This document shows, piece by piece, positions 16,253 through 63,971 of a stretch of 64,000 nucleotides of DNA; within the stretch, counting starts at the first letter, position 1, and each line of letters opens with the position of its first letter. The translations under genes and the position numbers were made by a program. The stretch is from a virus. The DNA lies in the IMG/VR virus record IMGVR_UViG_3300037245_003526, positions 88,297 to 152,296 of that record; one strand, 5' to 3'. A model generated the notes under the pieces. That model made no database searches, was not told the origin of the DNA, and worked only from the letters and a program-made list of their open reading frames with translations.

Positions 16253-16274
16253 AATAAGAGAGAAAGGAGATTTA

Positions 16275-18652: not shown

Positions 18653-21600
18653 TGGCAAGAGAAACCGAGGGTTTTCATTATACATTTATACATACTGTGT
18701 TTGGATCATTTATAAATGATACGTTGGAATTTTTTGCTGACTATTTATATCCTAGATTTGAGCATCAAGTAGTAGGAACCTATGATAAAGCAGTTGAATA
18801 TATAACAAAAAAAGATCAATATACAAGAGAAGAAGATAAACCAAATCTTCCCGCTATAATTTTAAATCCTGATGGTGAATTTAATTTAGATGAAGCAAAT
18901 ACTGGTGCTAGAAGTATATATCGTTTTCCAAATCTTATGTCTAGATTTTCTAGTATGATATATGATCCTATCTATCAAGATAATAATAATAAAGTAACTG
19001 TTGGTTTCACAAGATTAAAGGGAACTATAGAACTTTTATTATTACTCAATTCCTTTTACGAATATTTTGATGTAAAGATTTTCTTGATACAAATGTTTGG
19101 AGGTGAAGGAAAATACATCCATCCAGTTGAATTTGATTCTTTTATAATAATTCCTAATGATTTATATACATTCACATATGCAAATGATGTAACTGGTCTT
19201 ACATATAATTTAGATTGGACAGGTGCTGGAATTGAAAGTAAATTAGTAAGAACCACAAATAGAACCGAAATAGTTGTTCCAGGTAAAATTCGACCAACTT
19301 ATGCAATAAGGGGTATGAGTGATGCATCTACTAGACATGGTGGGATAGACTCTTTATCAGACTATAGATTAACAGTTCAAGTTGAATATGAAATTGAACT
19401 TCCTTCTTATATGATATTAGAAACTGATTATATTGTAGAACATGTTAACTTAGATTTACGATACGGTTCAAGTTATTCAGAATATTCAGATTATAATAAT
19501 GAACTCCCACAAGGAAGATATTTAACAAGAACAAGTTGGGATTCAGGATTAAGTGAAACAGAACATTCTGAATTTGACTCTGATGACTTACCTGATGAAG
19601 CAGAAATAGTACAAAAAATAGAATTAGAATCACGTACAAGATATTTTTATGAACTAACTAATGCAGATATTGATTCTACCTCTGATATATTTATAATTAT
19701 ATTTGAAGAAATTCTACAAGAAGAAAGATATTATCTTATTGTTAATAGTAAATATGGAGCAATGACATATGATCTCCACTACGATATACATAATAGTCAA
19801 ACAAGAATTCAGATAAAACGAGAAACAACCTCTGCATTAGAAGCTGGTGATATTATTGAATTATATGTTTATAAATTAATCCAATATCTTGCTGAGCTTG
19901 GAGCTACAGCTATTATAGGAACTGATCTGACTGCTAATGTAGAAATAACTATTCTACTTACTTCTACATCTATCATTCAATCTGATATCTATTCTGATTT
20001 AACTATTGGAGTTGTTGAAATTTCTTCAGGTACAAGTTCAATAGTTTCAGATGTTTCTATATCAGTTTTAACTATTGGAGTTATTGAAGTTTTATCAAGT
20101 ACAAGTTTAATAGAAACCTCTTGTAATGGATTATTACAATTTGGTCTTCCTGAATCTCTTTCAGGTACAGCAAATATAACATCATATGTTGATAATACAG
20201 CTATAATTTATTACAAATATTTAGATTCTTCACCTGCCATTCAATCTAATACAACATCTTCTTTACAACTAGGTCACGTAGAATCATTATCAAGCTCAGT
20301 AAATATAACAACCTCTGTTGATCATACAGGTTTAATTTATATAATAGTATCTTTGAGTGCTTCACCTATCATTCAATCTAATACAACATCTTCTTTACTA
20401 CTTGGACATGAAGAATCATTATCAGGTACATCAAATATAACATCCAATACAACATCTTCTTTACTACTTGGTCATGAAGAATCATTATCAGGTACATCAA
20501 ATATAACATCATATGTTGATAATACAGCTATAATTTATTTCAAATATTTAGATGCTTCATGTGTTATAGAAACCTCTTGTGATGGTTTATTAATTAACTA
20601 TATTGAACGACAAACAGATAAGGGATTTAATAATGTTACTGTAGAATCTGCTAGTTATATAACTCAGATAAGCAACACAGATCCAGCAGTTGCAACATTT
20701 GTTGGTGGTGCCGATATTGTAGTAGATGGAGATATGGAATCTGATGATGCTGCTTGGTTTAGTCAAGGAACGCCTACTGTGCAAGAACGATCAAGTGAGC
20801 AAGCGCATGCTGGAACTTATTCGAGAAAGTTCACTGTAGATGCTGTGAGTGAGGGTTTGAGGCAAAACTTTACAGGAATAAGTTGGAATGGCGTTCCACA
20901 AATGGCAACTTTCTGGATTTATGGAGATGGTGTAAATGAGTTGAATATAATTGTTGCTGGCTCATCTGCATTAGGTCAAGTAGACTCAACAGTTTATCCT
21001 GCATCATGGACAAAGGTATTTTTATATTTTGACGGTGATTCAGATACAACACCATATTTATTAATCAGATCCTCGGGGTCTTCTGGAACTTGGTATATTG
21101 ACGACGTTTCTATACAAGAAGTTGCAGATGTTGACGAAGGAGATTTTATTGTTTTAGATGAATTTGGTGATCACTTGACTCCGACTCTTTGGGATGCAGA
21201 TGCCTCAGTATTCACGAGCGGTGTTTATGCATGGCAAGGTTACAATGGTAACACAGTTGCGAATGTCGGAAACGAGCTTGAAGTTACTTATGTTGACGAT
21301 CAAAGAGGCGCATATTCTTCATTTAGAGATTCTTATGATTTATCGAGAAATCTTGTAGTAGGTGAGTGGTACATATTCCAAATAGATGCTTATTATATAG
21401 GTGGTGCCAGTGGAGTGAAAGTTAGGTTGCAGAATTCAGGCAGTTTTGATTCTGATCCATTGACAGGTTCCAAAACTACTTATACATGGGTTTTTAAAGC
21501 TTTAACTATTTTTGGATGTGCCACTACACAAATTTCAATGTCAGCGGGTAATAAAGTATATATTGATAATCTTTCTTTAGAACCTATTATGGCATTGGAT

Positions 21601-24600: not shown

Positions 24601-26292
24601 TCTGAACAAGCGCATAGTGGAACTTATTCAGCTAAATACGTAGCAACTGATGCTATTGGGCAGCATTATGTGTCTTGGTTAGCAAATCAATATAATGAAG
24701 GAGATTTAATTTATTTAGAAGCATGGGTTTATTTACCGAGTGGTCAGGATATAACGACATTAAATTTACAAGTATATGCGGATACTATTGATACTATAAC
24801 TACAACGGACACATGGGTTAAAATGTCTGGATATTTTGATGTTTTGAGTAGTCATTATTTTGATGTCAATGTAGAGCCTTGGTCCGGTATTGATTTAGAA
24901 AATCAGTATTTCTATATGGATGATATTGTAACCAAAAAAGTATCTGCTCCAGCACCGGGAGATTTTGTTTATCTTGATGGATTTGGTGAACATCTTGCTC
25001 CTACCATTTGGGATGAAGATGCTGCGGTATTTACGAGTGGAACTTATAGTTGGGAAGTTCAAGGAACAAATACAATTGCAAATGTTAGCAATGAACTTGA
25101 GATTACACATGTTGATAGTAACTTAGGAGCACAAAGCCGTTTCAGAGATGCATGGGATTTATCGGAAAATACTGTAATCGGGCAATGGTATAAATTTCAG
25201 GTTGATGCGTATTATACAGGTGGTTCGTCGGGTGTTTATTTAAGATTGTATGATGGAACTGCATATCATGATAGTGACAGCCTTACAGGAAGTAAAATAA
25301 CTTATACTCTTTATTTCAAAGCCTATAGTGAGACTGGATGTTATGTAAGATTGAATAATATGACTTCTGATAATTTAGTTTATATTGATAACCTTTCTTT
25401 ACAAAAAATAATGCCATTAGATAAATATATATATGAAATATACGATTTTGATGTTAATGGTAATGCTAAACTTAAAAACCATGTTGGAGATCTTGATTTA
25501 TCTGATTCAACAGCAGTAATAGATACAACAGGAACGATGCAAATTGCTACTATAGATGATTGGGTAGTAGGTGATGGAGTTGGACCTTATCAGGAAGTTG
25601 ATCGTACTCAAATTCTTAATAATAATGACTTTTCTGGTACTTGGGGAGCTAATGATTTACCTGAAGGTTGGGGTCAATTAGGAACACCTGATGCTAATAA
25701 TTATTTTGAAAAAGACGATACTAATAACAGAATAAGAATTGTTACTAATAGTAATACTATAGGCATTGCTCAATCTGGCCTGTTGTTTGTAGAGACACTG
25801 TATTATTATGAATGCGATGTATATTCTGCAACTGGAGGAATAATATTACGTACTGGGCATTCTGACCTTCATATAACTCTTGATTCAGCAGGGATATATA
25901 GTGGATTTTTTATCGTTCCTACTGGTAAATCAGCAATTTTTTATCTTAGAGATGGAGCTATTTCAGGAGATGTAGTAATTAACTATGTAAAAATATATGA
26001 AGTATCCAGATCGGTACAAGTTACAGGTTCTCAAACAGCAGAATCTTCAATACTTCAAGATGCAAGTGAAGATACAACTGCAGAATTTAGAATTTCATGG
26101 ACATTAGCAGACCGTACAGCAGGAGGTACAACTCCTACAGCAGGTGGTACTGATGGAACTGAAGTAATTACAAATGATGATCATACTGAAACTTTAATAA
26201 CAGAAGATACAAGTGATTCAGGATTAAAAATAAGTACAGGATGTATTGGAACAGTTGATGATTTAACAATTGAAGAATTAATTTATTGGTAA
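18652..26292 (+). CDS. giant modular virion-associated protein (2546 aa). Repeated carbohydrate-binding-like jelly-roll modules suggest a fibre or adhesin.
   Basis: Uninterrupted 7.6-kb ORF. It has three copies of a ~650-aa supermodule. The recurring blocks are ERSSEQAH.GTYS ... WYIDDVSI, WDADA.VFTSG.Y.W ... VYIDNLSLEP, NHVGDLDLSD ... IDDWVVGDGVG, and SVQVTGSQSAETS ... DRTAGGTTPTAGGTDGT ... GLKISTGFMGR.DD.TIEE. Aromatic/Gly-rich blocks are typical of CBM or lectin folds. Confidence 0.5.
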   Translation: MARETEGFHYTFIHTVFGSFINDTLEFFADYLYPRFEHQVVGTYDKAVEYITKKDQYTREEDKPNLPAIILNPDGEFNLDEANTGARSIYRFPNLMSRFSSMIYDPIYQDNNNKVTVGFTRLKGTIELLLLLNSFYEYFDVKIFLIQMFGGEGKYIHPVEFDSFIIIPNDLYTFTYANDVTGLTYNLDWTGAGIESKLVRTTNRTEIVVPGKIRPTYAIRGMSDASTRHGGIDSLSDYRLTVQVEYEIELPSYMILETDYIVEHVNLDLRYGSSYSEYSDYNNELPQGRYLTRTSWDSGLSETEHSEFDSDDLPDEAEIVQKIELESRTRYFYELTNADIDSTSDIFIIIFEEILQEERYYLIVNSKYGAMTYDLHYDIHNSQTRIQIKRETTSALEAGDIIELYVYKLIQYLAELGATAIIGTDLTANVEITILLTSTSIIQSDIYSDLTIGVVEISSGTSSIVSDVSISVLTIGVIEVLSSTSLIETSCNGLLQFGLPESLSGTANITSYVDNTAIIYYKYLDSSPAIQSNTTSSLQLGHVESLSSSVNITTSVDHTGLIYIIVSLSASPIIQSNTTSSLLLGHEESLSGTSNITSNTTSSLLLGHEESLSGTSNITSYVDNTAIIYFKYLDASCVIETSCDGLLINYIERQTDKGFNNVTVESASYITQISNTDPAVATFVGGADIVVDGDMESDDAAWFSQGTPTVQERSSEQAHAGTYSRKFTVDAVSEGLRQNFTGISWNGVPQMATFWIYGDGVNELNIIVAGSSALGQVDSTVYPASWTKVFLYFDGDSDTTPYLLIRSSGSSGTWYIDDVSIQEVADVDEGDFIVLDEFGDHLTPTLWDADASVFTSGVYAWQGYNGNTVANVGNELEVTYVDDQRGAYSSFRDSYDLSRNLVVGEWYIFQIDAYYIGGASGVKVRLQNSGSFDSDPLTGSKTTYTWVFKALTIFGCATTQISMSAGNKVYIDNLSLEPIMALDNNVYEIYDIVDNTAKLRNHVGDLDLSDSTSATGAGTCKVITIDDWVVGDGVGSYIDIDRDSPELVIDGDMTSAINWQVGAGWSIGGGVATSDGSPGYLNQNSIITTGKVYKVEFEVTAYTSGTIIGYINSPWDWIETATGTYSYILEATSESLRFYSAAFIGSIDNVSIKEVSDISVQVTGSQSAETSIIQNVNEIVDEELRTSFSVIDRTAGGVTPTAGGTDGTEVITNGDHSENLITVGTDDSGLKISTGFMGRVDDLTIEEVERGSKLLGTSNITTIDSSAFMTNFIYLDASCVIETSCDGLFINYVERQINGDFSEISLGSNIDISQITNADPAVATFTLGTDLWDADAAVFTSGTYSWLPYTNTIANVGNELEITFVDHSRGAYCYLRDAHDLISDLTVGQWYKLSVDAYYTGGASGVQLRLAVETPILSDLLTGIKTTYTFYFVATSVNGHDLSFLNMGASNVVYIDNLKIEPFAGIVEEGDFINLGGFGDVLSPDLASGWDFTSGWSTSVECTIDDSDSFTTTGSSRSVYITTIMEVGKWYKVTIVGSTSSSDIRCIAGSSIPGSNEPGFGVHYLKCTGIARFYIQNTTAGITDITTLEIEEVKSIDDYIYEVGAFTDNTAPLRNHVGDLDLSDLAGVTGAGYGQVATIDDWTVDDGVGPHFSYTSIIYNEVVNGDMELDTSWVSVLTPTVQERSSEQAHSLTYSRKITVDAEYEGVQQTIPGSADYGLYKITAWIYGDATNKLAAYLDTESVLVYYSDVEGDVYPASWTKITWYSILDEGTNPIVAFVSGQGDTTGTWYIDDVSILKVYSSVQVTGSQSAETSLLQDVNEIIDADFRILWTVEDRTAGGTTPTAGGTDGTTEIIINGDHSSEILTAVGTDDSGLKISTGFMGRIDDITIEELKQYTEFSGTSNITTSDSTAVIFGFTAVPRQTNEGFGEITLGSDINISQITNTNPALVTFADIGADDVTNGDNEAALFTYNNSARGGTTQSSEQAHSGTYSAKYVATDAIGQHYVSWLANQYNEGDLIYLEAWVYLPSGQDITTLNLQVYADTIDTITTTDTWVKMSGYFDVLSSHYFDVNVEPWSGIDLENQYFYMDDIVTKKVSAPAPGDFVYLDGFGEHLAPTIWDEDAAVFTSGTYSWEVQGTNTIANVSNELEITHVDSNLGAQSRFRDAWDLSENTVIGQWYKFQVDAYYTGGSSGVYLRLYDGTAYHDSDSLTGSKITYTLYFKAYSETGCYVRLNNMTSDNLVYIDNLSLQKIMPLDKYIYEIYDFDVNGNAKLKNHVGDLDLSDSTAVIDTTGTMQIATIDDWVVGDGVGPYQEVDRTQILNNNDFSGTWGANDLPEGWGQLGTPDANNYFEKDDTNNRIRIVTNSNTIGIAQSGLLFVETLYYYECDVYSATGGIILRTGHSDLHITLDSAGIYSGFFIVPTGKSAIFYLRDGAISGDVVINYVKIYEVSRSVQVTGSQTAESSILQDASEDTTAEFRISWTLADRTAGGTTPTAGGTDGTEVITNDDHTETLITEDTSDSGLKISTGCIGTVDDLTIEELIYW

Positions 26293-27329: not shown

Positions 27330-28583
27330 GTGAAGAATTATAGCGAAAAATTCAATCAACGAGATATAAAAGAAGTTTCTTCTGTGGAAATAAAAAAACT
27401 AGGATTATCAACAGATGGTCTTAAACATGTTGAAAAGATAGAAGAACTTAGAAAATCACCATTAAATTTAGTTATAGCAGAATGTATCCAAACATGTGAA
27501 TTTACGCAAAATAAATTTAAAAAACAAAAATTAAAGAGAAGAAAAAAATATGTAATGGGTCTGGGTATTTATAAACAGTTATGGTATGATACTGCAAGTT
27601 GTAGAAAAATACTCAGACCTTCGACCGTAAAATTTAAAAATATTTATAAACCATATCAAGGTCAAGATTTAACTGATAAGAAAATATTGATAACTAGAAC
27701 TGGTGGAATAGGAGACTTATTATTCATCCTTCCAAATTTAATATATCTTAAAGAAGAATATCCAACTTGTAAAATCTATTTTGCGTGTGGTCCGCAATAT
27801 CAAGATATGGTTAATAATTGGGATTGTATTGATGAGATTTTAGATCAACCATTTCCATTTGCATTTTTAACAACTGCTCATTATCATGCAGCTTTCGAGG
27901 GTGTTATAGAAAGAGCAGAAGAAGCTAAATATACCAATGCCTATCGTCTATTTACAAATTGGTTGGGTCTTGAATTACCAGATGAAAAATTAATTCCTGT
28001 ACAAGAACCAAAACCTCTTTTAGTTGATATATGTAATAATTTTTTAACTGAAAGAGAAAAAGATGAAGGATTTATAACAATACAACTTAGAGCATCATCT
28101 CCAATTAGAACCCCACGACCTACCTTCTGGAAAAATATAATTGATGGTTTAGTAAAGAAAAATTATAATGTAATTATTACTGATACTCCTCATATGGAAA
28201 AATCAATAGATCAGTTTATAGAAACTTTAAATCCTCTTACTCAGGAAAGAACTAGAAATTTTTCTAAACAATCAGTATCACTTGATTATTCAATTGCACT
28301 TGTCTCACTTTCAAAATGTGCAATATCTCCTGATAGTTCTTTGATTCATATTGCTGCTAGTATGAAAATACCAGCTTTTGGTATATATGGTGCATTTCCT
28401 GGTAATATAAGATTATCTACTTATAAAAATGTTGACTGGATTGAACCAGTTGGAGTAAGGTGTTGTCCATGTTTTATTCATGGTCCAAACCCATGCAGAA
28501 ATTCAGTAGATGGGCACCCAACATGTTATGATAAAATTAATGTAACTGAATCATTAGAAAAAGTTGAAAGGTTAATAAAATGA
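27330..28583 (+). CDS. glycosyltransferase family 9 (heptosyltransferase-like)
   Basis: KKILITRTGGIGDLLFILPNLIYLKEEYP (GT9 N-terminal motif). GTG start per the ORF track. Confidence 0.5.
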   Translation: MKNYSEKFNQRDIKEVSSVEIKKLGLSTDGLKHVEKIEELRKSPLNLVIAECIQTCEFTQNKFKKQKLKRRKKYVMGLGIYKQLWYDTASCRKILRPSTVKFKNIYKPYQGQDLTDKKILITRTGGIGDLLFILPNLIYLKEEYPTCKIYFACGPQYQDMVNNWDCIDEILDQPFPFAFLTTAHYHAAFEGVIERAEEAKYTNAYRLFTNWLGLELPDEKLIPVQEPKPLLVDICNNFLTEREKDEGFITIQLRASSPIRTPRPTFWKNIIDGLVKKNYNVIITDTPHMEKSIDQFIETLNPLTQERTRNFSKQSVSLDYSIALVSLSKCAISPDSSLIHIAASMKIPAFGIYGAFPGNIRLSTYKNVDWIEPVGVRCCPCFIHGPNPCRNSVDGHPTCYDKINVTESLEKVERLIK

Positions 28584-50701: not shown

Positions 50702-51253
50702 ATGGAGAAAATTCTTATCCTTTATAGTGGTGGTGCTGATTCCAGACTTATGTTAGAGCTAGCACATAAGATTGGATTATCAATCAATTGCCTTCTTATC
50801 AATTATGATCAGTTACATTCAGAAGAATTATCAATAGCAAAAAAACAACTAGAAGAATTAGAGATACCATACCAAACAGTCGATTTAAAAAATCTAAATA
50901 TTAATAGCGGTCTTACCGGAGATGGTATTAAAGATGATTCAGGTGATGTCCATGAAATGTATGTACCAGGAAGAAATACAGTATTTTTAAGTATAGCTCT
51001 TAGTATAGCTGAAAGTAAAGATATTAAAACAATATGGTTAGGATGTGATTGGTCAGATCGTTTAAATCTTTTTCCTGATTGTTATCAGGAATATATAGTA
51101 CAAATAAATGAGTTATTTAAAATTGCAGGTCCAAAATCAATAAAGGTTGAAGCTCCATTAATGGGATTAAGTAAAAAAAATATATTTGGATTACTTAAAT
51201 CATTTGGAGTAGATGAAGGAGATATTTTTTCTGGTTATGGGGATTTATCATGA
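50702..51253 (+). CDS. queC: QueC-like 7-cyano-7-deazaguanine synthase (PP-loop ATPase), C-terminally short
   Basis: ILYSGGADSRL PP-loop, YDQLH, VPGRNTVFLSIALSIAE, and DCYQEY. It lacks the C-terminal Cys4 zinc site of canonical QueC. Confidence 0.5.
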   Translation: MEKILILYSGGADSRLMLELAHKIGLSINCLLINYDQLHSEELSIAKKQLEELEIPYQTVDLKNLNINSGLTGDGIKDDSGDVHEMYVPGRNTVFLSIALSIAESKDIKTIWLGCDWSDRLNLFPDCYQEYIVQINELFKIAGPKSIKVEAPLMGLSKKNIFGLLKSFGVDEGDIFSGYGDLS

Positions 51254-51612
51254 AAAAAGAAAAGTTAAAAGAGGGAATTAAATATGACTTTGGAAAAAGT
51301 CGATATGATCTGATAGACCCATATGCATTAGAACAAGTTATACAAATATACACATTTGGTTGTAATAAATATGAAGATCATAATTGGCGAAAAGGAATGA
51401 AATGGAGTAGAGTATTCGGTGCACTAATGAGACATTGTTGGGCATTCTGGAGAGGAGAAGAAATAGATCCAGAAAGTAAATTACCTCATATGGCACATGC
51501 TGCATGGAATTGTCTTACCTTAATTAATTATTCAAAGTATAGAACAAAATTTGATGACAGATGGATAGAAACAGAAGAGAAAATAATCGAAAACGTAAGG
51601 AGAGGAAAATGA
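51250..51612 (+). CDS. phage NTP pyrophosphohydrolase-like protein (dATP/dGTP diphosphohydrolase N-domain family, from memory)
   Basis: GKSRYDLIDPYAL ... KYEDHNWRKGMKWSRVFGALMRHCWAFWRGEEID ... HMAHAAWNCLTL. This matches the pattern GKxRYDLxPxxAL ... KYGDxNWxKG ... SRxxDSALRH ... DHLAAAAWN that I recall for that family. Confidence 0.4.
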   Translation: MKKEKLKEGIKYDFGKSRYDLIDPYALEQVIQIYTFGCNKYEDHNWRKGMKWSRVFGALMRHCWAFWRGEEIDPESKLPHMAHAAWNCLTLINYSKYRTKFDDRWIETEEKIIENVRRGK

Positions 51613-52019
51613 TTAAAGTATACTTGGCAGGTTATGCAGGAGAAAAGGAATATAGAGAATATGTTTCTAAAAGATATGGAAGACATTTAGATATATTTGA
51701 TCCAATGAAAGAAGTTGACTCTAAAATTTTAGAAAAATATAGTGGAGGAACTTTATCAGAAAAAGATGTTGCTCTTATTGTAGAAGGAGATAAAGCAGCA
51801 ATTGAATCATGTGATATAGTTATTGTATATATAAGGAGAGCTTCTTTTGGAACAGCAATGGAAACGCTTCATGCATTCAAAAATAAAATTCCTGTTTATT
51901 TAATTGATTCAGATAATAAATGGAGAGAAGATGTTTGGGTACGATACCATACAACTAAGACATTCGATGATATAGATTCATGCTTCAGTTATATTTTAGA
52001 AAGCATAAAAGGATTGTAG
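51609..52019 (+). CDS. nucleoside 2-deoxyribosyltransferase-like / dNMP N-hydrolase-like protein
   Basis: MIKVYLAGYAG N-terminus and FGTAMETLHAFKNKIPVYLI (G-T-x-x-E catalytic motif). Start at 51609 (ATGA overlap, RBS AAGGAGAGG). Confidence 0.4.
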   Translation: MIKVYLAGYAGEKEYREYVSKRYGRHLDIFDPMKEVDSKILEKYSGGTLSEKDVALIVEGDKAAIESCDIVIVYIRRASFGTAMETLHAFKNKIPVYLIDSDNKWREDVWVRYHTTKTFDDIDSCFSYILESIKGL

Positions 52020-53947: not shown

Positions 53948-54493
53948 ATGTATATATACGATGTTTTAGAAGATAAACGATATAGAGAAAAAGTAAAAAA
54001 TAGGTTATTGAATAGGTCTACTGTAAATAAAGAAACAGGTTGTAGAATTTGGGATGGTTATAAAATACATGGATATGGAAATATTCATATAAAAAATAAA
54101 AATGTTGCTACTCATAGAGTTTCATATGAAGTTTTTATTGGACCTATTCCAAAAGATAAAATTTTGATGCATAGTTGTGATAATCCAGCCTGTATAGAAC
54201 CAACACATTTAGTTATAGGTACTATACAAGAAAATAACGAAGATAGATCAAGAAAAAATAGAACAGCAAGACAATTTGGTTCTTCTAATGGAATGGCAAA
54301 ATTAAACGAAGAGAATGTTAAATTTATTAAAGAATATTTACTTCCATATGATATAAGATGTCGTGAATATAAAACAATGAAGGAATGTGTTGCATTTGAA
54401 TACAATGTTAAACCATTAACAATTCATAATATCATGATCGAAAAAACATGGAAAAATATTAAAATATCTAGCGAAATTTTAGAAAGGATATAA
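53948..54493 (+). CDS. HNH homing endonuclease
   Basis: GCRIWDGYKIHGYGNI ... THRVSYE ... HSCDNPACIEPTHLVIGT ... N..D. Confidence 0.55.
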   Translation: MYIYDVLEDKRYREKVKNRLLNRSTVNKETGCRIWDGYKIHGYGNIHIKNKNVATHRVSYEVFIGPIPKDKILMHSCDNPACIEPTHLVIGTIQENNEDRSRKNRTARQFGSSNGMAKLNEENVKFIKEYLLPYDIRCREYKTMKECVAFEYNVKPLTIHNIMIEKTWKNIKISSEILERI

Positions 54494-55412: not shown

Positions 55413-55652
55413 ATGCTATTACTTAGAGTGTATGTTAATCTTGATGAAATTGATACCATTGGAATAATAAATACAGGTCACGTAGACCCTGAAACAGAAG
55501 AACATTTATATAGAGTTCATTGGCCAGAAGATTATAAAGCTAAATATAACCATTTAGAAATCTATCATTTACGTACAGACCCTTGGACAGTGTTAGTCGA
55601 AAAAGTAATGAATGCAATGAATGTAAATTCTAAAATAAAGGAACCTGAATGA
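55413..55652 (+). CDS. hypothetical protein
   Basis: 79 aa. Confidence 0.35.
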   Translation: MLLLRVYVNLDEIDTIGIINTGHVDPETEEHLYRVHWPEDYKAKYNHLEIYHLRTDPWTVLVEKVMNAMNVNSKIKEPE

Positions 55653-56185
55653 ATTGTTTAAAATGTGGTGTTGAAACTACAAATACTAAATTTTGTGGAA
55701 GAGCATGTTCTGCTTCATATAACACAAAAGGTAGAAAACATTCTATTGAAACCAAAAGAAAAATAAGTAATACATTAGGTGGAGTAGGTAAAGCAGAAGA
55801 AGAACATTTTTGTAAATTATGTGGACATAATATTTCAAGTGTTAGAAAAACTAAATTATGTGATACATGTAAAATTGGTGAATTTTTATGTGATGTATGT
55901 GGAAAAATTTGTAAAACAGAATTAGGATTAAAAAGTCATAAAGAACAAGGTTGTATTAACAGAAAAATAGGTATAGATTCACAAGGTTATGAATATTTTA
56001 CTGATAATGAAAATAAATTTAAATATGTTCATAGATCTAAAATTGAAGAATTGTTAGGAAGAAAACTAAAAACTAATGAAGTTGTTCATCATAAAGATGA
56101 AATTAAAAAAAATAATGATATAGAAAATCTAGAACTAATGACTATATCTAAACATTCAAAACTTCATGCTGATATGCGCCGATAG
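55649..56185 (+). CDS. HNH endonuclease with N-terminal zinc ribbon and a C2H2-like finger
   Basis: CLKCG ... CGRAC, CDVCGKICKTELGLKSHKEQ, and C-terminal VHHKDEIKKNNDIENLELMTISKHSKLH. Its 3' end overlaps tRNA-Trp. Confidence 0.5.
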   Translation: MNCLKCGVETTNTKFCGRACSASYNTKGRKHSIETKRKISNTLGGVGKAEEEHFCKLCGHNISSVRKTKLCDTCKIGEFLCDVCGKICKTELGLKSHKEQGCINRKIGIDSQGYEYFTDNENKFKYVHRSKIEELLGRKLKTNEVVHHKDEIKKNNDIENLELMTISKHSKLHADMRR

Positions 56186-56251
56186 CTCAAGCGGGTAGAG
56201 TACTGGTCTCCAAAACCAGTGGTGGGGATTCGAGGTCCTCTCGGCGTGCCA
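56176..56251 (+). tRNA. tRNA-Trp (anticodon CCA)
   Basis: Manual cloverleaf. Acceptor GCGCCGA / TCGGCGT, anticodon arm CTGGT-CTCCAAA-ACCAG, T-loop TTCGAGG, 3' GCCA. Confidence 0.55.
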
Positions 56252-56273
56252 TAAAAACGAAAGGAAAATAAGA

Positions 56274-56558
56274 GTGGATGATATAAAAAGATATAAATCA
56301 CAAAACGAAATAAATATACCTATAGTTAGAAACTACAAAGATTTATATATTCTACTTCAAAGACCAATGAATTTTGAAGATGGTTCTGAAGCATATATTC
56401 ATTCTGAAGGAATTATAAGAGAAGATTGGCCGAATGCTCATTTATGTTTTTTAAAATATACAGCAGATAATAAAATAAGGGATTGGCTTTGGTTATTGAG
56501 TCCAGACGAAAAAAAAGGTATGTGTATTTTTGACTTTAAACCAGAGTATACAGTTTAA
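56274..56558 (+). CDS. hypothetical protein. Paralog A of a tandem duplicated pair.
   Basis: MDDIKRYKSQNEI ... C.FDFKPEY. Confidence 0.4.
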   Translation: MDDIKRYKSQNEINIPIVRNYKDLYILLQRPMNFEDGSEAYIHSEGIIREDWPNAHLCFLKYTADNKIRDWLWLLSPDEKKGMCIFDFKPEYTV

Positions 56559-56575
56559 ACGAAAGGTAGTTCTTA

Positions 56576-56860
56576 ATGAATGAATTAAAAAGATATAAAT
56601 CAGCAGAAGAATTGAATAACCCATATTTTGTTAAAGATCATAAGGACTTGAATAAATTAGATAAAAAGTTTGATTTAAAAGAGGGTGATGAAGCAGTTTG
56701 GATTATTGATAGAACTGGCTGTCCAGAATGGTGGAATGGCGAACGTAATTATTATAGAAATATTAATGATTCTAAAAATCCACAATATATATGGTGCCCA
56801 ATTAAGGGTGAAGATGGTGGTTTATGTTTTATTGACTTTGAACCAGAATACTCAATTTAA
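56576..56860 (+). CDS. hypothetical protein (paralog B)
   Basis: MNELKRYKSAEEL ... CFIDFEPEY. Same length as paralog A (94 aa). Confidence 0.4.
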   Translation: MNELKRYKSAEELNNPYFVKDHKDLNKLDKKFDLKEGDEAVWIIDRTGCPEWWNGERNYYRNINDSKNPQYIWCPIKGEDGGLCFIDFEPEYSI

Positions 56861-56877
56861 ACGAAAGGAAATTAACA

Positions 56878-57261
56878 TTGAAGATAGCATTTGATTTTCA
56901 CGGAGTATTACAAACGTATCCAGAAATTTTAAAACCTATTTTAATATCATTAAATAAAGAACATAATTTAATAATATTATCTGGACCACCATGGAAAGAA
57001 ATTTTTGTAGAACTTACTGACGCAGGTTATACTTTAGGTACCCACTATGATGAAATAATTTCTGTAGTTGATTGGATTAAAGAACAAGGTATTCCAATGC
57101 ACCAAAATGAAAATGAATCATGGTATTGTGATGATGAAAGTTGGTGGTCAAGTAAAGCTAAAATTTGTAAACAAAATCATATAAGTGTTTTAGTAGATGA
57201 TAAGATACAATATAAAGAACATATTGAAAATAATTTTCCATTATTTTTTCATGTGAAATAA
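56878..57261 (+). CDS. small HAD-like hydrolase (5'(3')-deoxyribonucleotidase-like). TTG start.
   Basis: IAFDFHGVL (motif I) and VLVDD (motif IV). Confidence 0.35.
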   Translation: MKIAFDFHGVLQTYPEILKPILISLNKEHNLIILSGPPWKEIFVELTDAGYTLGTHYDEIISVVDWIKEQGIPMHQNENESWYCDDESWWSSKAKICKQNHISVLVDDKIQYKEHIENNFPLFFHVK

Positions 57262-57262
57262 A

Positions 57263-57338
57263 CCTCCCATAGCTCAACAGGTAGAGCATTCGCCTTATAA
57301 GCGAAAGACGATAGGTTCGATTCCTACTGGGAGGACCA
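57263..57338 (+). tRNA. tRNA-Ile (anticodon UAU, reads AUA)
   Basis: Manual fold. Acceptor CCTCCCA / TGGGAGG, D-stem GCTC/GAGC, anticodon arm TTCGC-CTTATAA-GCGAA, T-loop TTCGATT, ACCA. Confidence 0.5.
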
Positions 57339-57343
57339 TATAT

Positions 57344-57418
57344 TCCTTAGTGGTGAAATTGGCATCACGTATGGCTGTTAACCATAAATTACAGGTTCGA
57401 CCCCTGTCTGAGGAGCCA
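57344..57418 (+). tRNA. tRNA-Asn (GUU)
   Basis: Manual fold. Acceptor TCCTTAG / CTGAGGA, D-stem GTGA/TCAC, anticodon arm TATGG-CTGTTAA-CCATA, T-arm ACAGG-TTCGACC-CCTGT, GCCA. Confidence 0.5.
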
Positions 57419-57424
57419 AATTAT

Positions 57425-57498
57425 TCTCAGGATGTATACGGAGCATTATTAATTGACGCGCGCTTTAGTAGGAAGTTCGACCCTTCCCCTGAGAGCCA
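57425..57498 (+). tRNA. tRNA-like element or pseudo-tRNA (no canonical anticodon arm)
   Basis: Acceptor TCTCAGG / CCTGAGA plus GCCA, and a good T-arm GGAAG-TTCGACC-CTTCC. The central 39 nt, including GACGCGCGC, does not fold into a D-arm and anticodon arm. Confidence 0.3.
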
Positions 57499-57504
57499 TT
57501 TAAT

Positions 57505-57580
57505 GGGTGAGTAGCTAAACTGGCTTAGCGTCGAGCTGTTAACTCGAAGTATGAGAGTTCAAGTCTCTCCTTGCCCTCCA
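57505..57580 (+). tRNA. tRNA-Asn (GUU), second copy
   Basis: Manual fold. Acceptor GGGTGAG / CTTGCCC (2 G-U pairs), D-stem GCTA/TAGC, anticodon arm TCGAG-CTGTTAA-CTCGA, T-arm GAGAG-TTCAAGT-CTCTC, TCCA. Confidence 0.45.
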
Positions 57581-57601
57581 TTAAAAACGAAAGGATACTT
57601 T

Positions 57602-57826
57602 ATGATAAGTCCATGTAAAAAATGTATTAATCATTCAAGAATATTTCCAGTATGTTTTGATAAATGCAAATCAATAGAACAATTTCAACATTCATTATTT
57701 CATACTTCTATTATTGAAGAAGCAGAAGATTATGAATATATAACTCAAGATTGTCTATGGAAATATGAAGGTATATATAGACTAGCTAATACGAAAACAC
57801 CTCAAATAGAAGCTCAACTATATTAA
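57602..57826 (+). CDS. Cys-rich zinc-ribbon family member (short)
   Basis: MISPCKKCINHSRIFPVCFDKCKS. Start behind AAACGAAAGGA. The track's longer ORF overlaps the tRNA. Confidence 0.4.
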   Translation: MISPCKKCINHSRIFPVCFDKCKSIEQFQHSLFHTSIIEEAEDYEYITQDCLWKYEGIYRLANTKTPQIEAQLY

Positions 57827-57829
57827 TAA

Positions 57830-57904
57830 TGGGGGATCGTCTAATGGTCAGGACCCAAGATTTTGAATCTTGTAATCGGAGTTCGAATCTCTGTCCCTCA
57901 GCCA
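57830..57904 (+). tRNA. tRNA-Gln (UUG)
   Basis: Manual fold. Acceptor TGGGGGA / TCCCTCA, D-stem GTCT/GGAC, anticodon arm CAAGA-TTTTGAA-TCTTG, T-arm CGGAG-TTCGAAT-CTCTG, GCCA. Confidence 0.5.
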
Positions 57905-57908
57905 AATA

Positions 57909-58172
57909 ATGCCGAGTAGTATATTGATTATTACAACCGAACTTAAAGGGAGAATGAGGTTTAATTCCTCACTCGGCAACCACTTAAAAATTATGAAAGA
58001 AAATCTATATTGGTTAAACACGACTTGGGGTTGTGGTGGAATACTAACAAATGATAAGAATATAATTACAAATTCATGTCCATTATATGGTTGGATGAAA
58101 GGAAATAAAATAAGTTATATTCTAAAGTATCTTGATAAAAAAAGAGTATTAAGAAAATGTAAAAAAATATAG
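57909..58172 (+). CDS. hypothetical protein
   Basis: 87 aa. A 7-bp inverted repeat (GCCGAGT / ACTCGGC) spans its 5' end. Confidence 0.3.
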   Translation: MPSSILIITTELKGRMRFNSSLGNHLKIMKENLYWLNTTWGCGGILTNDKNIITNSCPLYGWMKGNKISYILKYLDKKRVLRKCKKI

Positions 58173-58187
58173 AAAGGAAGGTATATT

Positions 58188-58748
58188 ATGAACAAGGTGA
58201 TTGTTTTAAATAGCGATTACAGTTTTCTAAATTTAGTACATTGGAAAACAGCAATGCGCCTGGTTTGTAAGAATAAAGTTGAGGTTTTAAAAGAGACTAC
58301 TAGGATTTTAACTGACGAATTAAAAACTTGGAAAATTGCTATACCATTAGTAATAAGACTTGTTAAAATAGTTCGTACTATTTATAAGACTAGAGTACCT
58401 TTTAGTAAAAAGAATGTATTTGTTCGTGACAATTTTACATGTCAATATTGTGGAGAAGAGTTTAATAGTAAAACTAAAAAGAGAGTTTTGAATGCCTCTG
58501 GACATCATGAAAGCATACTATTAAATATAGATCATTTAAATCCTACCTCAAAAGGTGGGAAATCAACATTTGAAAATTGTGTTGCTTCATGTAAAACTTG
58601 TAATAATAAGAAAGGTGATAGGAGTCTAAGAGAACTAAATATGGTTTTAGCAAGGAGTCCATTTCAACCAACTATTATGGAGTTCATGATTCTTAAAATG
58701 AAATCTTTAGGAATAGATGAGATTCTTAAAGACTTAGGAGTATATTAG
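58188..58748 (+). CDS. HNH endonuclease
   Basis: CQYCGEEF ... HHESILLNIDHLNPTSKGG ... NCVASCKTCNNKKGD. Confidence 0.55.
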   Translation: MNKVIVLNSDYSFLNLVHWKTAMRLVCKNKVEVLKETTRILTDELKTWKIAIPLVIRLVKIVRTIYKTRVPFSKKNVFVRDNFTCQYCGEEFNSKTKKRVLNASGHHESILLNIDHLNPTSKGGKSTFENCVASCKTCNNKKGDRSLRELNMVLARSPFQPTIMEFMILKMKSLGIDEILKDLGVY

Positions 58749-58755
58749 ATTAATG

Positions 58756-58842
58756 GCGGGTACCGTCCACGGGGACAAGCGGCCTTGAAAGCCGTTGGCG
58801 TGTGTAAAAGCATGGGCGTTCGACTCGTCTACTCGCCGCCAT
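58756..58842 (+). tRNA. tRNA-Ser (UGA), class II with long variable arm
   Basis: GC-rich island. Acceptor GGCGGGT / ACTCGCC plus GCCA, 3-bp D-stem, anticodon arm GCGGC-CTTGAAA-GCCGT, ~18-nt variable arm, T-arm GGGCG-TTCGACT-CGTCT. Confidence 0.5.
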
Positions 58843-58858
58843 TTGAAAAGAGGAAATA

Positions 58859-59155
58859 ATGAATACAATATTTACAGTAACTTCTATTAAAGCAGGTGCA
58901 TATATATCAGGTGGTTGTCGAACTGTTGGATGGTTTAAAACTGAAGAAGAAGCTAAAGAAATAGTTGAAAATAATTGCGGTGATATTTACGAATGTGGAT
59001 ATTATCAATATGCAGTAGTTGAAGAATATGAATCCGGTTTATATATTATGTCATATGAAAAACAATGGTATAGGTGGAACAAAGAACAAGAGAAATATGA
59101 ACCTATAAGAAAACCTTCCAAATTTAATAGGATATGTAATTACGCAATAGGATAA
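58859..59155 (+). CDS. hypothetical protein
   Basis: 98 aa. RBS AAGAGGAAA. Confidence 0.4.
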   Translation: MNTIFTVTSIKAGAYISGGCRTVGWFKTEEEAKEIVENNCGDIYECGYYQYAVVEEYESGLYIMSYEKQWYRWNKEQEKYEPIRKPSKFNRICNYAIG

Positions 59156-59156
59156 A

Positions 59157-59354
59157 ATGGAACGATTCAGAAATAAACAGACTGAATGTAAATATTCAGA
59201 TATAAATAATAAAGGTTTTTGTAATTATAACAACTGGCACAATGGTCTGTGCTTTTGTACTAAAAAAGAATGGGAAGGAAAAAAGTTAAAAGCATATTTA
59301 TGTTGTCCATATCTTTTTTTAAATGATACAGAAGAATACGGAAAGGAAAGGTGA
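59157..59354 (+). CDS. small Cys-rich hypothetical protein
   Basis: 65 aa. CKYS ... FCNYNNWHNGLCFC ... CCPY. Confidence 0.35.
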   Translation: MERFRNKQTECKYSDINNKGFCNYNNWHNGLCFCTKKEWEGKKLKAYLCCPYLFLNDTEEYGKER

Positions 59355-60475
59355 GAAAAGTGAAGACTGATAAATTAGCATCATTAATCCCAATCCACGA
59401 ACTAGAACAATCCGCACAACAACAAGTCTATAATAATCTAGCGTTTGACTTTTTATTAAAGTTAGCTATCATGCCAGATTGTCATACAGGATATTTATTA
59501 CCAATAGGTGGAGTTGCATTATTAGATAATGTTGTATCTCCTGAATACGTTGGATATGATGAAGGTTGTGGTATGTGTTGTATAGTAACAGATATACCTT
59601 ACTATGATATACTTAAAAATGATAAAAAGAATCAAAGATTATTTGATAAAATATATAAACATATTCCTGTTGGATTTAATATGAGAGAAAATTCTCTTCA
59701 TTGTTTTGATGAATTCAAATCAGCATCTGGTGATAAAGCTTTAAATAAAAAAGTAAATGAAAAATTATGGAAACAGCTAGGTACACTGGGAGGGGGTAAT
59801 CATTTTATTGAATTGGGTAAAGATAAAAATGATATGTTTTGTATCACTATACATTCTGGTTCACGTAATCCTGGTCATTCTGTTGCTGGTTTTTATATGA
59901 AGAAAACAAAACTCATTGATAAAGATTTACCTAAAGGATTCTTCCATCTACATTCAGAATGGGGTCAGATGTTTATACAAGACTTAGAATTTATGCTTGA
60001 ATATGCTCTTGCTAATAGAACAGAGATGATGAAAAATATTTTAGATATAGTTGGTTTATCTCATAACTTTTTATTTAAGATGATTAATGAAAATCATAAT
60101 CATGCTATTGTTCAGAATAATAATACAGTACTTCATAGAAAAGGTGCTACTCCATCATTAAAAAATCAACTTGGAGTTATACCTGGTAATATGAGAGATG
60201 GTGTTTATGTTGTTAAAGGTCTTGGTAATAAAAAATATCTTAATTCATCTTCTCATGGAGCTGGAAGAAAGGGTTCTAGAAGATGGGCAAAAGAGTCTAT
60301 TACAATGGAAAGATTTGAACAGTCAATGGATGGAATAATAGCTAAAGTTGATAAGTCTACATTAGATGAAGCACCTGATGCTTATAAAAATGTTGACAAG
60401 GTAATTCAAGCACAGGCAGGAATTGTAGTAGATGTTATTAATCATATCCAACCTATTATAAATGTGAAAGGATAA
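59351..60475 (+). CDS. rtcB: RtcB-family RNA ligase (3'-phosphate/5'-OH)
   Basis: MPDCHTGY ... PIGGVA, GGGNHFIELG, HSGSRNPGH and SSHGAGR. These are the canonical RtcB metal-binding and GMP-His motifs. Confidence 0.65.
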   Translation: MRKVKTDKLASLIPIHELEQSAQQQVYNNLAFDFLLKLAIMPDCHTGYLLPIGGVALLDNVVSPEYVGYDEGCGMCCIVTDIPYYDILKNDKKNQRLFDKIYKHIPVGFNMRENSLHCFDEFKSASGDKALNKKVNEKLWKQLGTLGGGNHFIELGKDKNDMFCITIHSGSRNPGHSVAGFYMKKTKLIDKDLPKGFFHLHSEWGQMFIQDLEFMLEYALANRTEMMKNILDIVGLSHNFLFKMINENHNHAIVQNNNTVLHRKGATPSLKNQLGVIPGNMRDGVYVVKGLGNKKYLNSSSHGAGRKGSRRWAKESITMERFEQSMDGIIAKVDKSTLDEAPDAYKNVDKVIQAQAGIVVDVINHIQPIINVKG

Positions 60476-60480: not shown

Positions 60481-60639
60481 ATGTGGGAAATAATAGCTAT
60501 TGTTGCTATAGTTATTGCAGTTATTCTTTTACTTATTGTAATATCTTTAATTGGTGTTTTAAATCAAATAGGAAAAGCTGGTGAAGCTCTACTTGGTGGG
60601 TTTCTTGGAATGACTCTTGGAAGGTATAAGAAAAAATGA
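60481..60639 (+). CDS. small membrane peptide (52 aa)
   Basis: Not in the track. MWEIIAIVAIVIAVILLLIVISLIGVLNQIGKAGEALLGGFLGMTLGRYKKK. RBS AAAGGA. ATGA overlap with the next gene. Confidence 0.4.
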   Translation: MWEIIAIVAIVIAVILLLIVISLIGVLNQIGKAGEALLGGFLGMTLGRYKKK

Positions 60640-60827
60640 TGTTTAATCCTTTTTGTAAAAATCCTTGTAAAAAATGTATTATTTCAATGGTGTGTACAGA
60701 GGAATGTCCAGATAAAATGAATTATTGGACTACGGTAGTAAAAATTTCAGATAGTTTACCTATAGTATCTTTTGGATTTATATTTCTAACATATATTGGA
60801 GGTTATATTATTAAAAATTTTTTATAA
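60636..60827 (+). CDS. Cys-rich family N-terminal motif fused to a C-terminal TM helix
   Basis: CKKCIISMVCTEECPDK, then IVSFGFIFLTYIGGYII. Confidence 0.4.
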   Translation: MMFNPFCKNPCKKCIISMVCTEECPDKMNYWTTVVKISDSLPIVSFGFIFLTYIGGYIIKNFL

Positions 60828-61657: not shown

Positions 61658-61978
61658 ATGATTGTAGAAAAAGTAAAACAATTTTTTTCAAGTGAGAATA
61701 AGGAAATATTTAAATTTATAAAAAAAGAAAAGTACCCTTGTAAAGAATGTCTTGTAGTACAAGTATGTTCAGAACTTTGTGATAAAGTTGAAATTGATGA
61801 ATATAAAATTTTTAATAAAATGATTACTAATAGTTGTTGTCCTGATTGTGGTGGAACAAAACTTTATGAAGGTTCAAGTGGAGGATGTTGTCAAAATATT
61901 TTTTGTACAAATTGTAACCATGGATTTAATGTAACAGCTCCTTTTGAAAAAATTGAAAGAATAGGAAAAATGAGATAG
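61658..61978 (+). CDS. Cys-rich double zinc-ribbon protein (family member)
   Basis: PCKECLVVQVCSELCDKV ... CPDCGG ... CTNCNH. Confidence 0.5.
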   Translation: MIVEKVKQFFSSENKEIFKFIKKEKYPCKECLVVQVCSELCDKVEIDEYKIFNKMITNSCCPDCGGTKLYEGSSGGCCQNIFCTNCNHGFNVTAPFEKIERIGKMR

Positions 61979-62028: not shown

Positions 62029-62403
62029 GGGCGTGAAATGGCTTCGACAGGGATGATGAAGAGAATATTGCGATTGGTAATGATCAATACCTTAAAAGAT
62101 CAACTAAACATAAATGCAGACAATTTAGCATTTGCAGCTGCTGACGATTATGCCACAGCTGCACTTGCTGCCTAAAGAGGCGGCACGTCAAACCTTTGAT
62201 GCTATCTAAAAGGATCTTGGCGTCGACTAGATAGATAGGTTAACTTTAGTTTGTGAATACTAAGGTAAAACCGAAATCCGAATTCACAAACTTCTGAGGG
62301 TTTATGTCCTTTTATAAACTCAGAAGTATTTAAAAGGACTATAATCGTAGATATATGATTGGATGGTTTCTGGACCTCGGTTCGACTCCGAGCACGTCCA
62401 CCA
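62029..62403 (+). ncRNA. ssrA: tmRNA (ssrA). Tag peptide (A)DNLAFAAADDYATAALAA.
   Basis: 5' GGGCGTGAAATGGCTTCGACAGGG (tmRNA hallmark TTCGAC-GGG). Tag ORF GCA GAC AAT ... CTT GCT GCC TAA at 62116-62175, ending ALAA-stop. 3' tRNA-like end GGACCTCGG-TTCGACT-CCGAG plus CACGTCC-A-CCA pairing with the 5' GGGCGTG. Confidence 0.7.
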
Positions 62404-62950: not shown

Positions 62951-62998
62951 AAATGAGATGAGATGTTATTATATTATAATAGCATCTCATTTTTTTTG
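62951..62998 (+). terminator. rho-independent terminator
   Basis: AAATGAGATG ... CATCTCATTT stem, followed by T8. Confidence 0.6.
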
Positions 62999-63047: not shown

Positions 63048-63971
63048 ATGGAGGTGACAATGGAGCAGAATAACGCAGATGTTGGTATTATTGTTGGACG
63101 ATTCCAAGTTGATGAGTTACATGAAGCGCATCTAGATCTTATTCAGACTGTAAAAGATCGACATGCGAAGGTTATCATCTTTCTCGGTTTAAGTCCAGTT
63201 CAATGTACCACAAATAACCCGTTAGATTTTGAAGCAAGAAAACAGATGATACAAGTTATATATTCTGATATAAATATCTTGTACATCAAAGATATGAGCT
63301 CTGATAACGAATGGTCCAAAAAACTAGATGAACAAATTAAAGATCTAGTTGGTCCAAATCAATCGGTTGCTTTATATGGAGGAAGAGAGTCATTCATTGA
63401 TCATTATAATGGTAAACACAGTTGTATTGAGTTGAAGCATAAACAAACTAGTTTTGTTAGCGGTTCTGTAATAAGGAAGAGTATATCAAGAACAGTTAAA
63501 TCTTCTCCTGACTTCAGAGCTGGTGTAATATGGACTACTGCAAATCAATACACTAATGCTATGCCTACTGTTGATGTTGCAATTCTAAATGAGGATAAAA
63601 CGAGTATATTACTCGCTCGAAAAAAATACGAAACTATGTATAGATTTGTAGGTGGTTTTGTAGATGCGGGTGAAACTTTTGAAGCAGCAGCACGTAGAGA
63701 AGTTATGGAAGAAACAACACTATCTATACATGACCCAAAATATATAGAAAGTTTTGTTATTGATGATTGGCGTTATAAAAATGAAAAGGCAAAAATTACA
63801 ACATTATTTTTCACAGCTAAATATATTTCTGGTAAACCTGAAGCAAGAGATGATATTGAAGAATTGCGATGGTTTGAAATGAATAAAAAATTAAAAGATG
63901 TTGTAATCCCAATTCATTTACCTATGCTTGAAAAACTAAGTTTTTTAAGCTTCTTTGATGATAAAATTTAA
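63048..63971 (+). CDS. bifunctional NMN adenylyltransferase (NadM-type) / Nudix hydrolase (NatV-like)
   Basis: N-terminal GIIVGRFQVDELHEAH (archaeal-type NMNAT H-x-G-H-like box) and C-terminal Nudix box GGFVDAGETFEAAARREVMEETT. Confidence 0.55.
   Translation: MEVTMEQNNADVGIIVGRFQVDELHEAHLDLIQTVKDRHAKVIIFLGLSPVQCTTNNPLDFEARKQMIQVIYSDINILYIKDMSSDNEWSKKLDEQIKDLVGPNQSVALYGGRESFIDHYNGKHSCIELKHKQTSFVSGSVIRKSISRTVKSSPDFRAGVIWTTANQYTNAMPTVDVAILNEDKTSILLARKKYETMYRFVGGFVDAGETFEAAARREVMEETTLSIHDPKYIESFVIDDWRYKNEKAKITTLFFTAKYISGKPEARDDIEELRWFEMNKKLKDVVIPIHLPMLEKLSFLSFFDDKI

Follow-up and report, generated by a model that had tools for sequence, protein, structure and literature searches.

An RtcB RNA ligase gene within the tRNA array of an uncultured, distantly T4-like phage

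The 64,000-nucleotide (nt) stretch of viral DNA analyzed here (IMG/VR record IMGVR_UViG_3300037245_003526, positions 88,297 to 152,296), which we call the window and in whose own positions all coordinates are given, carries an RtcB RNA ligase gene among tRNA genes, small open reading frames (ORFs) and HNH endonuclease genes, with a transfer-messenger RNA (tmRNA) gene downstream. Our preferred interpretation, held with moderate confidence, is that the whole forms the left part of the tRNA region of a T4-like phage, a co-transcribed translation-support region that includes an RNA-repair ligase. Within this lineage, tRNA genes and RtcB are genuinely linked, and the linkage is conserved, but it does not extend to phage RtcB genes in general.

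The window has a GC content of 29.3% and codes for a T4-type clamp loader and a Dda-like helicase. As both are at most 33% identical to their counterparts in known T4-like phages, namely, KVP40-like and cyanobacterial T4-like phages, the source is an uncultured, deep-branching, distantly T4-like phage with AT-rich DNA. When the region was compared at the nucleotide level with 50,697 phage records, only short tRNA-level matches emerged and hence no close cultured DNA relative.

RESULTS

RtcB and its placement among tRNA genes

The ligase gene (59351-60475, + strand) encodes a compact RtcB 3'-phosphate/5'-OH RNA ligase of 374 amino acids (aa), or 371 aa if translation begins at GTG 59360. The protein matches Pfam PF01139 over its full length (253.3 bits, cut-off 27), phrog_1075 (E 3e-99) and RtcB structures in the PDB (E 1e-24 to 1e-26). 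Residues D70, C73, N150, H151, H168, H249, H302 and K373 are invariant across 27 homologues, and mapping through alignments with the Pyrococcus horikoshii and Thermus thermophilus proteins assigns them as metal ligands, the guanylylated His (H302, in SHGAGR) and the C-terminal Lys. The P. horikoshii reference residues are D95, C98, H203, H234, H329, H404 and K480; in Escherichia coli RtcB, the catalytic residues align with D75, C78, H168, H185, H281 and H337. At the level of sequence, then, the active site, of the GTP/Mn type, is shown to be intact, and the initial annotation was right to describe an RtcB with all signature motifs. The listed start, GTG at 59351, overlaps the upstream stop codon, and a ribosome-binding stretch, GGAAAGGAAAGG, suits the second GTG (59360) better. 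A database protein of 371 aa with 100% identity likewise suggests that this second GTG is the true start.

RtcB homologues of 60 to 85% identity were present in a large protein collection, on contigs of 71 to 304 kb, and linkage was counted at loci with at least 8 kb of flank. A tRNA gene lies within 3 kb of RtcB in all six close relatives (loci L004, L005, L006, L168, L169 and L170). In L005, RtcB sits within an array of 13 tRNA genes, and in L006 it sits within an array of 10, with a tRNA-Asn ending 3 nt before it; L168 has an Asn-like tRNA 27 nt before RtcB, and L169 has two tRNA genes 1.7 kb upstream. The tRNAs near RtcB lie overwhelmingly on its own strand (336 same, 10 opposite). The L170 locus (15796-16752; RtcB 60% identical) has a 25-tRNA array that also contains a T4 Rnl2-type ligase, giving two RNA ligases in one array.

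The closest syntenic relative is L004, a locus on a 304-kb contig with a 75% identical RtcB, which is syntenic with the window at 66 to 88% nucleotide identity. Its gene order runs from a cupin gene through tRNA-Trp, a single 94-aa ORF, a 127-aa ORF, tRNA-Ile(tat), two tRNA-Asn genes, tRNA-Gln and an HNH_5 gene to a Ser(UGA)-like gene, RtcB, a 91-aa ORF and a tmRNA; past the tmRNA come ten tRNA genes over 9 kb (three for Leu and one each for Asp, Ser(gct), Met, Glu, Tyr, His and Pro). Since L004 carries these ten additional tRNAs, the six of the window are probably the left end of a larger array that is cut at position 64000. The Ser(UGA)-like gene of L004 (9889-9974 of that locus), just upstream of RtcB, was missed by ARAGORN and by Rfam (E<=0.01) and was read by eye, so tRNA counts in these arrays are underestimates.

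Beyond these loci, a tblastn search with the window RtcB matched 707 of the 50,697 phage records. A scan of Genome Taxonomy Database (GTDB) genomes for RtcB gave no match, and a metagenome scan with a lineage-specific RtcB alignment gave, among the matches listed, relatives all at 49% identity or less and no further close loci.

The tRNA genes and codon usage

ARAGORN finds exactly six tRNA genes in the 64 kb, all on the + strand and within 56176-58841, besides the tmRNA, and a CCA end is encoded by all six and by the tmRNA. They are tRNA-Trp(CCA) at 56176-56251 (Rfam RF00005, 55.2 bits), tRNA-Ile(UAU), which decodes AUA, at 57263-57338 (65.9 bits; 84% identical to the Ile(tat) gene of L004), two tRNA-Asn(GUU) genes at 57344-57418 (60.2 bits) and 57505-57580 (60.3 bits), tRNA-Gln(UUG) at 57830-57904 (58.2 bits) and tRNA-Ser(UGA), a class II tRNA with a long variable arm, at 58755-58841. 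The first five are canonical elongator cloverleaves by both ARAGORN and Rfam, at 55 to 66 bits against a gathering score of 29. The Ser gene is recognized by ARAGORN and by its homologues; its sole Rfam match is to tRNA-Sec, at 35 bits and under the gathering score, and it can be aligned to the Ser(UGA) genes of phage Arash, L005 and L006 as well as to the Ser-like gene of L004, where a compensatory acceptor-stem change (C3-G to A3-U) is seen. The six tRNAs proposed in the initial annotation, with the anticodons it gave, are thereby borne out, five by both programs and Ser by ARAGORN and homology.

The second tRNA-Asn has U as its discriminator, where G is usual, and an acceptor stem very unlike that of the first copy. 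It is nonetheless the better conserved of the two, at 88% identity to the second tRNA-Asn of L004 (8659-8734 of that locus), with compensatory changes in the anticodon stem and the T stem; position 33 of the L004 gene is apparently C instead of U.

A codon table built from 79 ORFs (18,919 codons) shows that these tRNAs decode the A/U-ending codons favored by the phage. Of the Ile codons, 51% are ATA (45 per thousand), in agreement with the earlier suggestion that tRNA-Ile(UAU) fits an AUA-rich usage, while AAT accounts for 87% of Asn codons and CAA for 83% of Gln codons, and TCA is the top Ser codon. One could suppose that the tRNAs supply codons for AT-rich genes and nothing else and that the other members of the region, namely, RtcB, the tmRNA and the HNH genes, have no connection with them and are accessories gathered in a hyperplastic, nonessential stretch. 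The fit of the anticodons to preferred codons is as this explanation expects, as are the lack of a nearby tRNA at most viral RtcB loci, the wealth of small variable ORFs, indels and duplications, and the presence of NAD-salvage and nucleotide-modification genes in the same neighborhood. Trp, however, has a single codon and so offers no codon-bias argument, and in six independent relatives RtcB is found in the array, often 3 to 30 nt from a tRNA, where the order is otherwise rearranged. We regard codon supply without repair as a possible but distinctly less favored account.

The tmRNA

The tmRNA gene (62029-62403, + strand), with tag ADNLAFAAADDYATAALAA, is called by ARAGORN and scores 132.6 bits against Rfam RF00023 (gathering score 47), in agreement with the earlier mention of a tmRNA. 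It has a tRNA-like domain and a tag frame that ends in ALAA and then a stop. No SmpB match was found among the ORFs scanned between 44.1 and 64 kb, and the phage tmRNA presumably uses SmpB of the host.

The gene lies 1.55 kb downstream of RtcB here and ~0.4 kb after it in L004, a proximity that brings to mind ribosome repair, in which RtcB and the tmRNA would act like RtcB2 and PrfH, with RtcB resealing 16S rRNA cut in the decoding center and the tmRNA clearing the ribosome. RtcB2 is known to mend 30S subunits, not tRNAs (PMC9304027), the window protein is compact, and its best NCBIfam models are short RtcB forms that include the PrfH-coupled family. The scores, however, fall under the NCBIfam equivalog cut-offs (129 bits where 271.8 are needed and 155 where 407 are needed, for the RtcB2 models TIGR03073 and PRK09588), and BLASTP places the protein closer to the tRNA-repairing E. 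coli RtcB, or RtcB1 (160 bits), than to the PrfH-linked, rRNA-specific RtcB2 (112 bits). No release-factor domain (prfH) was found among the ORFs flanking RtcB. With scores so far under the cut-offs, the weaker BLASTP match and no adjacent prfH, we rejected an RtcB2/PrfH-type identity. A tmRNA, moreover, accompanies RtcB only in the window, in L004 and in 1 of 81 IMG/VR loci, and tmRNA was reported to be unable to replace PrfH in E. coli (PMC9304027). Joint ribosome repair by RtcB and tmRNA is therefore very unlikely.

Translation support and RNA repair

How the region might work as a unit can be pictured from its layout, which is that of the accessory stretches at times termed translation-takeover regions. 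The junctions between genes and tRNAs are gaps of 1 to 6 nt or a 10-nt overlap, everything is on one strand, and the tRNAs stand among small ORFs. Because of this tight one-strand spacing and the lack of a convincing terminator between genes, the tRNAs would be made from long transcripts and freed by host RNase P and 3' trimming. They could then sustain phage translation if tRNAs of the host run short or are degraded or cleaved, and RtcB could reseal RNAs, most plausibly tRNAs, with 2',3'-cyclic-phosphate and 5'-OH ends of the kind that host anticodon nucleases or toxins would leave. The tmRNA, for its part, may release ribosomes that have stalled on broken mRNAs. The region has no homologue of Pnkp or Rnl.

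Several observations weigh against this account. In the wider sample, a tRNA lies within 3 kb of RtcB at only 17 of 74 IMG/VR loci and 4 of 36 metagenome loci, and 43 of the 74 IMG/VR loci have none within 10 kb; relatives L001 and L007 to L009, whose RtcB proteins are 48 to 58% identical, are among the loci with no nearby tRNA. RtcB therefore needs no adjacent tRNA array. The 84% identical contig L167 is free of tRNAs over the 1.1 kb that precede RtcB and the 1.5 kb that follow it. At 29% GC, anticodons rich in A and U would match the favored codons almost automatically, and the continuation of the array past position 64000 is read from L004 only. Finally, whereas the identities of the parts can be seen directly, it is from them that we infer the substrates of RtcB and its role in counter-defense.

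The initial annotation had proposed a module for translational self-sufficiency and against anticodon nucleases. This reading, which is partly supported, agrees with the placement of RtcB, conserved in all six close relatives, and with published proposals (PMC3203893, PMC7824862, PMC5648845). The isotypes probably do not form a chosen set of targets: Trp, Ile, Asn, Gln and Ser are probably an arbitrary slice of the array and are therefore uninformative as to which tRNAs a nuclease targets.

A tRNA-like element

Between the two tRNA-Asn genes, 6 nt from either, lies a tRNA-sized, tRNA-like element (57425-57498, + strand) recognized by inspection of the sequence; ARAGORN calls it only when the threshold is lowered to 70%. 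Its acceptor stem of 7 bp (TCTCAGG/CCTGAGA) and its T arm (GGAAG-TTCGACC-CTTCC) are both perfect, and G as discriminator and CCA are present, with neither a D arm nor an anticodon arm, and its GC content is 49% within a 29%-GC genome. ARAGORN made no call from default to 80% thresholds, and Rfam gave no match at E<=5; RNAfold predicts a three-way junction and a central hairpin with a 17-nt loop. The syntenic relative L004 has no counterpart, and an exact search of IMG/VR for the 3' half gave no match. Identity to the six tRNAs is 51 to 58%, the background between unrelated tRNAs. Descent by decay from tRNA-Asn was considered, as the 3' end resembles that of the first Asn gene (71% over 24 nt), and was set aside as not demonstrable, the overall 58% being at background. 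The earlier description of a degenerate tRNA copy thus holds for the acceptor stem, T arm and CCA, but as a canonical tRNA the element fails with both ARAGORN and Rfam, which leaves a pseudogene or a tRNA-like RNA that does not decode as the two alternatives.

In archaea and animals, RtcB serves as the ligase in tRNA splicing, and the element could in principle be a substrate if RtcB served to join the phage's own split, permuted or intron-containing tRNAs. Consistent with such self-maturation, the element has no normal core, and in some relatives tRNA calls are of unusual length or lack an assignment. Yet each of the six tRNAs is a canonical cloverleaf encoded without interruption and with its CCA, neither introns nor split genes were detected, and the odd element is missing from L004, the closest syntenic relative. 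We give this idea the least credence and consider it highly improbable.

The HNH endonuclease genes

Two HNH genes are interspersed with the tRNAs, and the earlier label of homing endonuclease may fit only one of them. The gene at 55649-56185 (+ strand) encodes a 178-aa HNH_3 endonuclease with a NUMOD3-like region (Pfam HNH_3, E 8e-11; several PHROG HNH families). The end of the gene, comprising the last three codons and the stop, shares 10 nt with tRNA-Trp, so that the TAG stop (56183-56185) is inside the tRNA, which starts at 56176; the overlap of the stop codon by the first tRNA was correctly noted in the initial annotation. From the cupin gene to tRNA-Trp, the distance is 73 nt in L004 versus ~790 nt in the window, where the interval holds a 79-aa ORF and the HNH_3 gene, and tRNA-Trp, beside it, is unusually diverged between the two. 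Because the gene is absent at the syntenic site in L004 and the adjacent tRNA-Trp is diverged, it appears to be a selfish mobile insertion, showing the pattern expected of a free-standing homing endonuclease. Its sole other match among the relatives is partial (46%, in L005). At 53948-54493, 1.7 kb before the island begins, there is a third HNH gene, again of the HNH_3 type, whose product has a zf-His_Me_endon-like region.

The second gene (58188-58748, + strand) encodes a 186-aa HNH/HNH_5 endonuclease (Pfam HNH 6e-12, HNH_5 2e-11; phrog_16726 4e-32) with an intact CxxC...DH...N...CxxCN motif and ends 6 nt before tRNA-Ser. Orthologues of 51 to 60% identity occur in L004, L005, L006 and L168, each time within the tRNA array, and in three of these four relatives the gene is within ~0.7 kb of RtcB. 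Being present in all four relatives for which context is available, the gene is a conserved array resident, for which the term "homing" is unsupported. Of 12 HNH genes, 5 directly adjoin the 5' end of a tRNA, a number that is not significant since tRNAs make up about one-fourth to one-third of the array features.

A further, unlikely thought is that the nuclease genes are not simply parasites but have become a working part of the array, in one of two ways. In the first, because the HNH_3 stop codon lies inside tRNA-Trp, an RNase P cut at the 5' end of the tRNA would leave a stop-less HNH_3 message; endonuclease output would then be set by the balance of translation versus tRNA processing, and stalled products would be tagged by tmRNA, possibly the phage's own. 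In the second, the HNH_5 protein may be a domesticated nuclease beside tRNA-Ser and RtcB that could drive SegB-like segmental amplification of a tRNA/RtcB counter-defense locus, and a 302-nt duplication together with the triplet of Asn, tRNA-like element and Asn (80- to 81-nt spacing) could be scars of such amplification.

Small ORFs and flanking genes

The 302-nt duplication involves two tandem, paralogous 94-aa ORFs (56274-56558 and 56576-56860, + strand; BLASTP 32% identity, E 7e-15), which form direct repeats at 302-nt spacing and are represented by one copy in L004. They form an old tandem duplication, and neither has a Pfam or PHROG match. The 10-mer AAACGAAAGG occurs four times, where shuffled sequence would give 0.09; all four are within the island, each a short distance ahead of the start of an ORF, with copies in 56255-56868 and at 57585-57594; the first three are exactly 302 nt apart.

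A conserved 127-aa ORF follows (56878-57261, + strand; phrog_13623, E 8e-10) and ends 1 nt before tRNA-Ile. Orthologues are found in L004, L005 and L169, adjoining NAD-salvage genes in the latter two, and searches of Pfam and the PDB gave no match. Between the second tRNA-Asn and tRNA-Gln is a Cys-rich 74-aa ORF with PCKKC...VCx3C (57602-57826, + strand), recognized by paralogue alignment and by direct repeats D4, D5 and D17, whose start was placed after motif AAACGAAAGG. It and two other small Cys-rich ORFs (60636-60827 and 61658-61978) have a common N-terminal PCK(K/E)C(I/L)...VCx3C and similar DNA and make up a family dispersed over the tRNA/RtcB region. The small ORFs of the island matched no functional family in Pfam (E<=5), PHROGs, NCBIfam, PADLOC or the PDB.

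Directly after the tmRNA (from 62501) comes a CARDB-domain protein with a lipoprotein-like N terminus, behind which a hairpin at 62955-62993 is the one strong terminator-like structure in the region. Between 54.5 and 62.9 kb, terminator-like sites were weak and promoter-like sites showed no excess, both scans being uninformative in AT-rich DNA. At 63048-63971, 0.65 kb past the tmRNA, is a gene for a bifunctional NMN adenylyltransferase-Nudix protein (NadM/NatV-like); NAD-salvage genes are also near RtcB and tRNAs in Proteus phage Privateer (L002), L005 and L169. An exact look-up of the NMN adenylyltransferase-Nudix protein, aimed at sequence past position 64000, gave no match.

Upstream of the island, three genes are side by side (50702-52019), one for a QueC homologue, one for a protein whose N-terminal domain is of the dATP/dGTP diphosphohydrolase type and one for a protein resembling nucleoside 2-deoxyribosyltransferases, and similar genes are present in L004, L006 and L168. 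This trio suggests a pathway for 7-deazaguanine or another non-canonical DNA base. Farther away, a 2,546-aa ORF (18652-26292) has no PHROG match at E<=1e-5, and other large ORFs (14252-16252, 27330-28583 and 2399-3538) are likewise without assignment.

DISCUSSION

The region belongs to an already described kind of phage translation-support region and is ordinary rather than new. What the window adds is an uncultured, deep-branching T4-like lineage to the phages with RtcB, and here also a tmRNA, inside a tRNA array. That RtcB stays a few nt to a few hundred nt from a tRNA despite shuffled gene order lends some support to a real linkage of the two, and this would fit the long-standing idea of RtcB as a phage safeguard of the tRNA pool against ribotoxins of the host. 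No new question is opened, and cultured phages of the same layout (Lacusarx, Privateer, and cluster K1 and C mycobacteriophages) are better suited to testing that idea.

A guarding role for RtcB alongside tRNAs has been proposed repeatedly since 2011 as a response to tRNA cleavage. Among K1 mycobacteriophages, RtcB is found only in tRNA-encoding genomes, and Pope et al. (2011) proposed that it protects from host tRNA cleavage (PMC3203893). These phages differ from the window in having a single tRNA and no phage tmRNA and in being temperate siphoviruses, with RtcB ~32 to 35% identical. For jumbo phages, Iyer et al. described tRNAs as "supplemented" by RtcB or Rnl ligases (PMC7824862). Compared with E. 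coli RtcB, of the rtcBA operon, and the RtcB2-PrfH pair, the window protein has the fold family and catalytic residues in common; identity is 28 to 29%, and the phage gene has no RtcA, RtcR or PrfH partner nearby.

T4 itself is similar in some respects and different in others. Its tRNA cluster holds a free-standing homing endonuclease, SegB (PMC2330249; PMC13096335), which amplifies tRNA genes and thereby defeats the tRNA-cleaving Septu defense (PMC13096335), and its RNA ligase reverses anticodon-nuclease damage, with Pnkp and Rnl1 acting on tRNA-Lys cut by PrrC (PMC10264068). T4 and the window thus share a tRNA cluster with an endonuclease and RNA repair, and the replication genes of the window are distantly T4-like. 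SegB, however, is a GIY-YIG enzyme and not an HNH enzyme, T4 has no tmRNA, and repair in T4 is of the heal-and-seal type (Pnkp and the ATP-dependent Rnl1), whereas RtcB seals 3'-phosphate and 5'-OH ends directly with GTP.

The closest cultured RtcB homologues, at ~42% identity, are those of Proteus phage Privateer and Cronobacter phage vB_CsaP_009 (Grimontviridae). In Privateer, RtcB has been reported ~1 kb from the tRNA cluster (PMC7881722). As in the window, RtcB of these phages is close to tRNAs and on the same strand, 1.2 to 2 kb downstream of a three-tRNA cluster, in the company of small ORFs and NAD-salvage genes. Unlike the source of the window, they are podoviruses of ~90 kb with 3 or 4 tRNAs, no tmRNA, no HNH gene in the cluster and a polynucleotide kinase nearby.

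The counterpart that combines tRNAs, a tmRNA and rtcB, as the window does, is the Sphingobium phage Lacusarx, which has 24 tRNAs and one tmRNA, with rtcB inside the tRNA region, and whose authors called this a region for takeover of host transcription and translation (PMC5648845). Compared by description, Lacusarx belongs to an unrelated siphovirus lineage, and its region includes tadA and a sigma factor, with no HNH gene reported.

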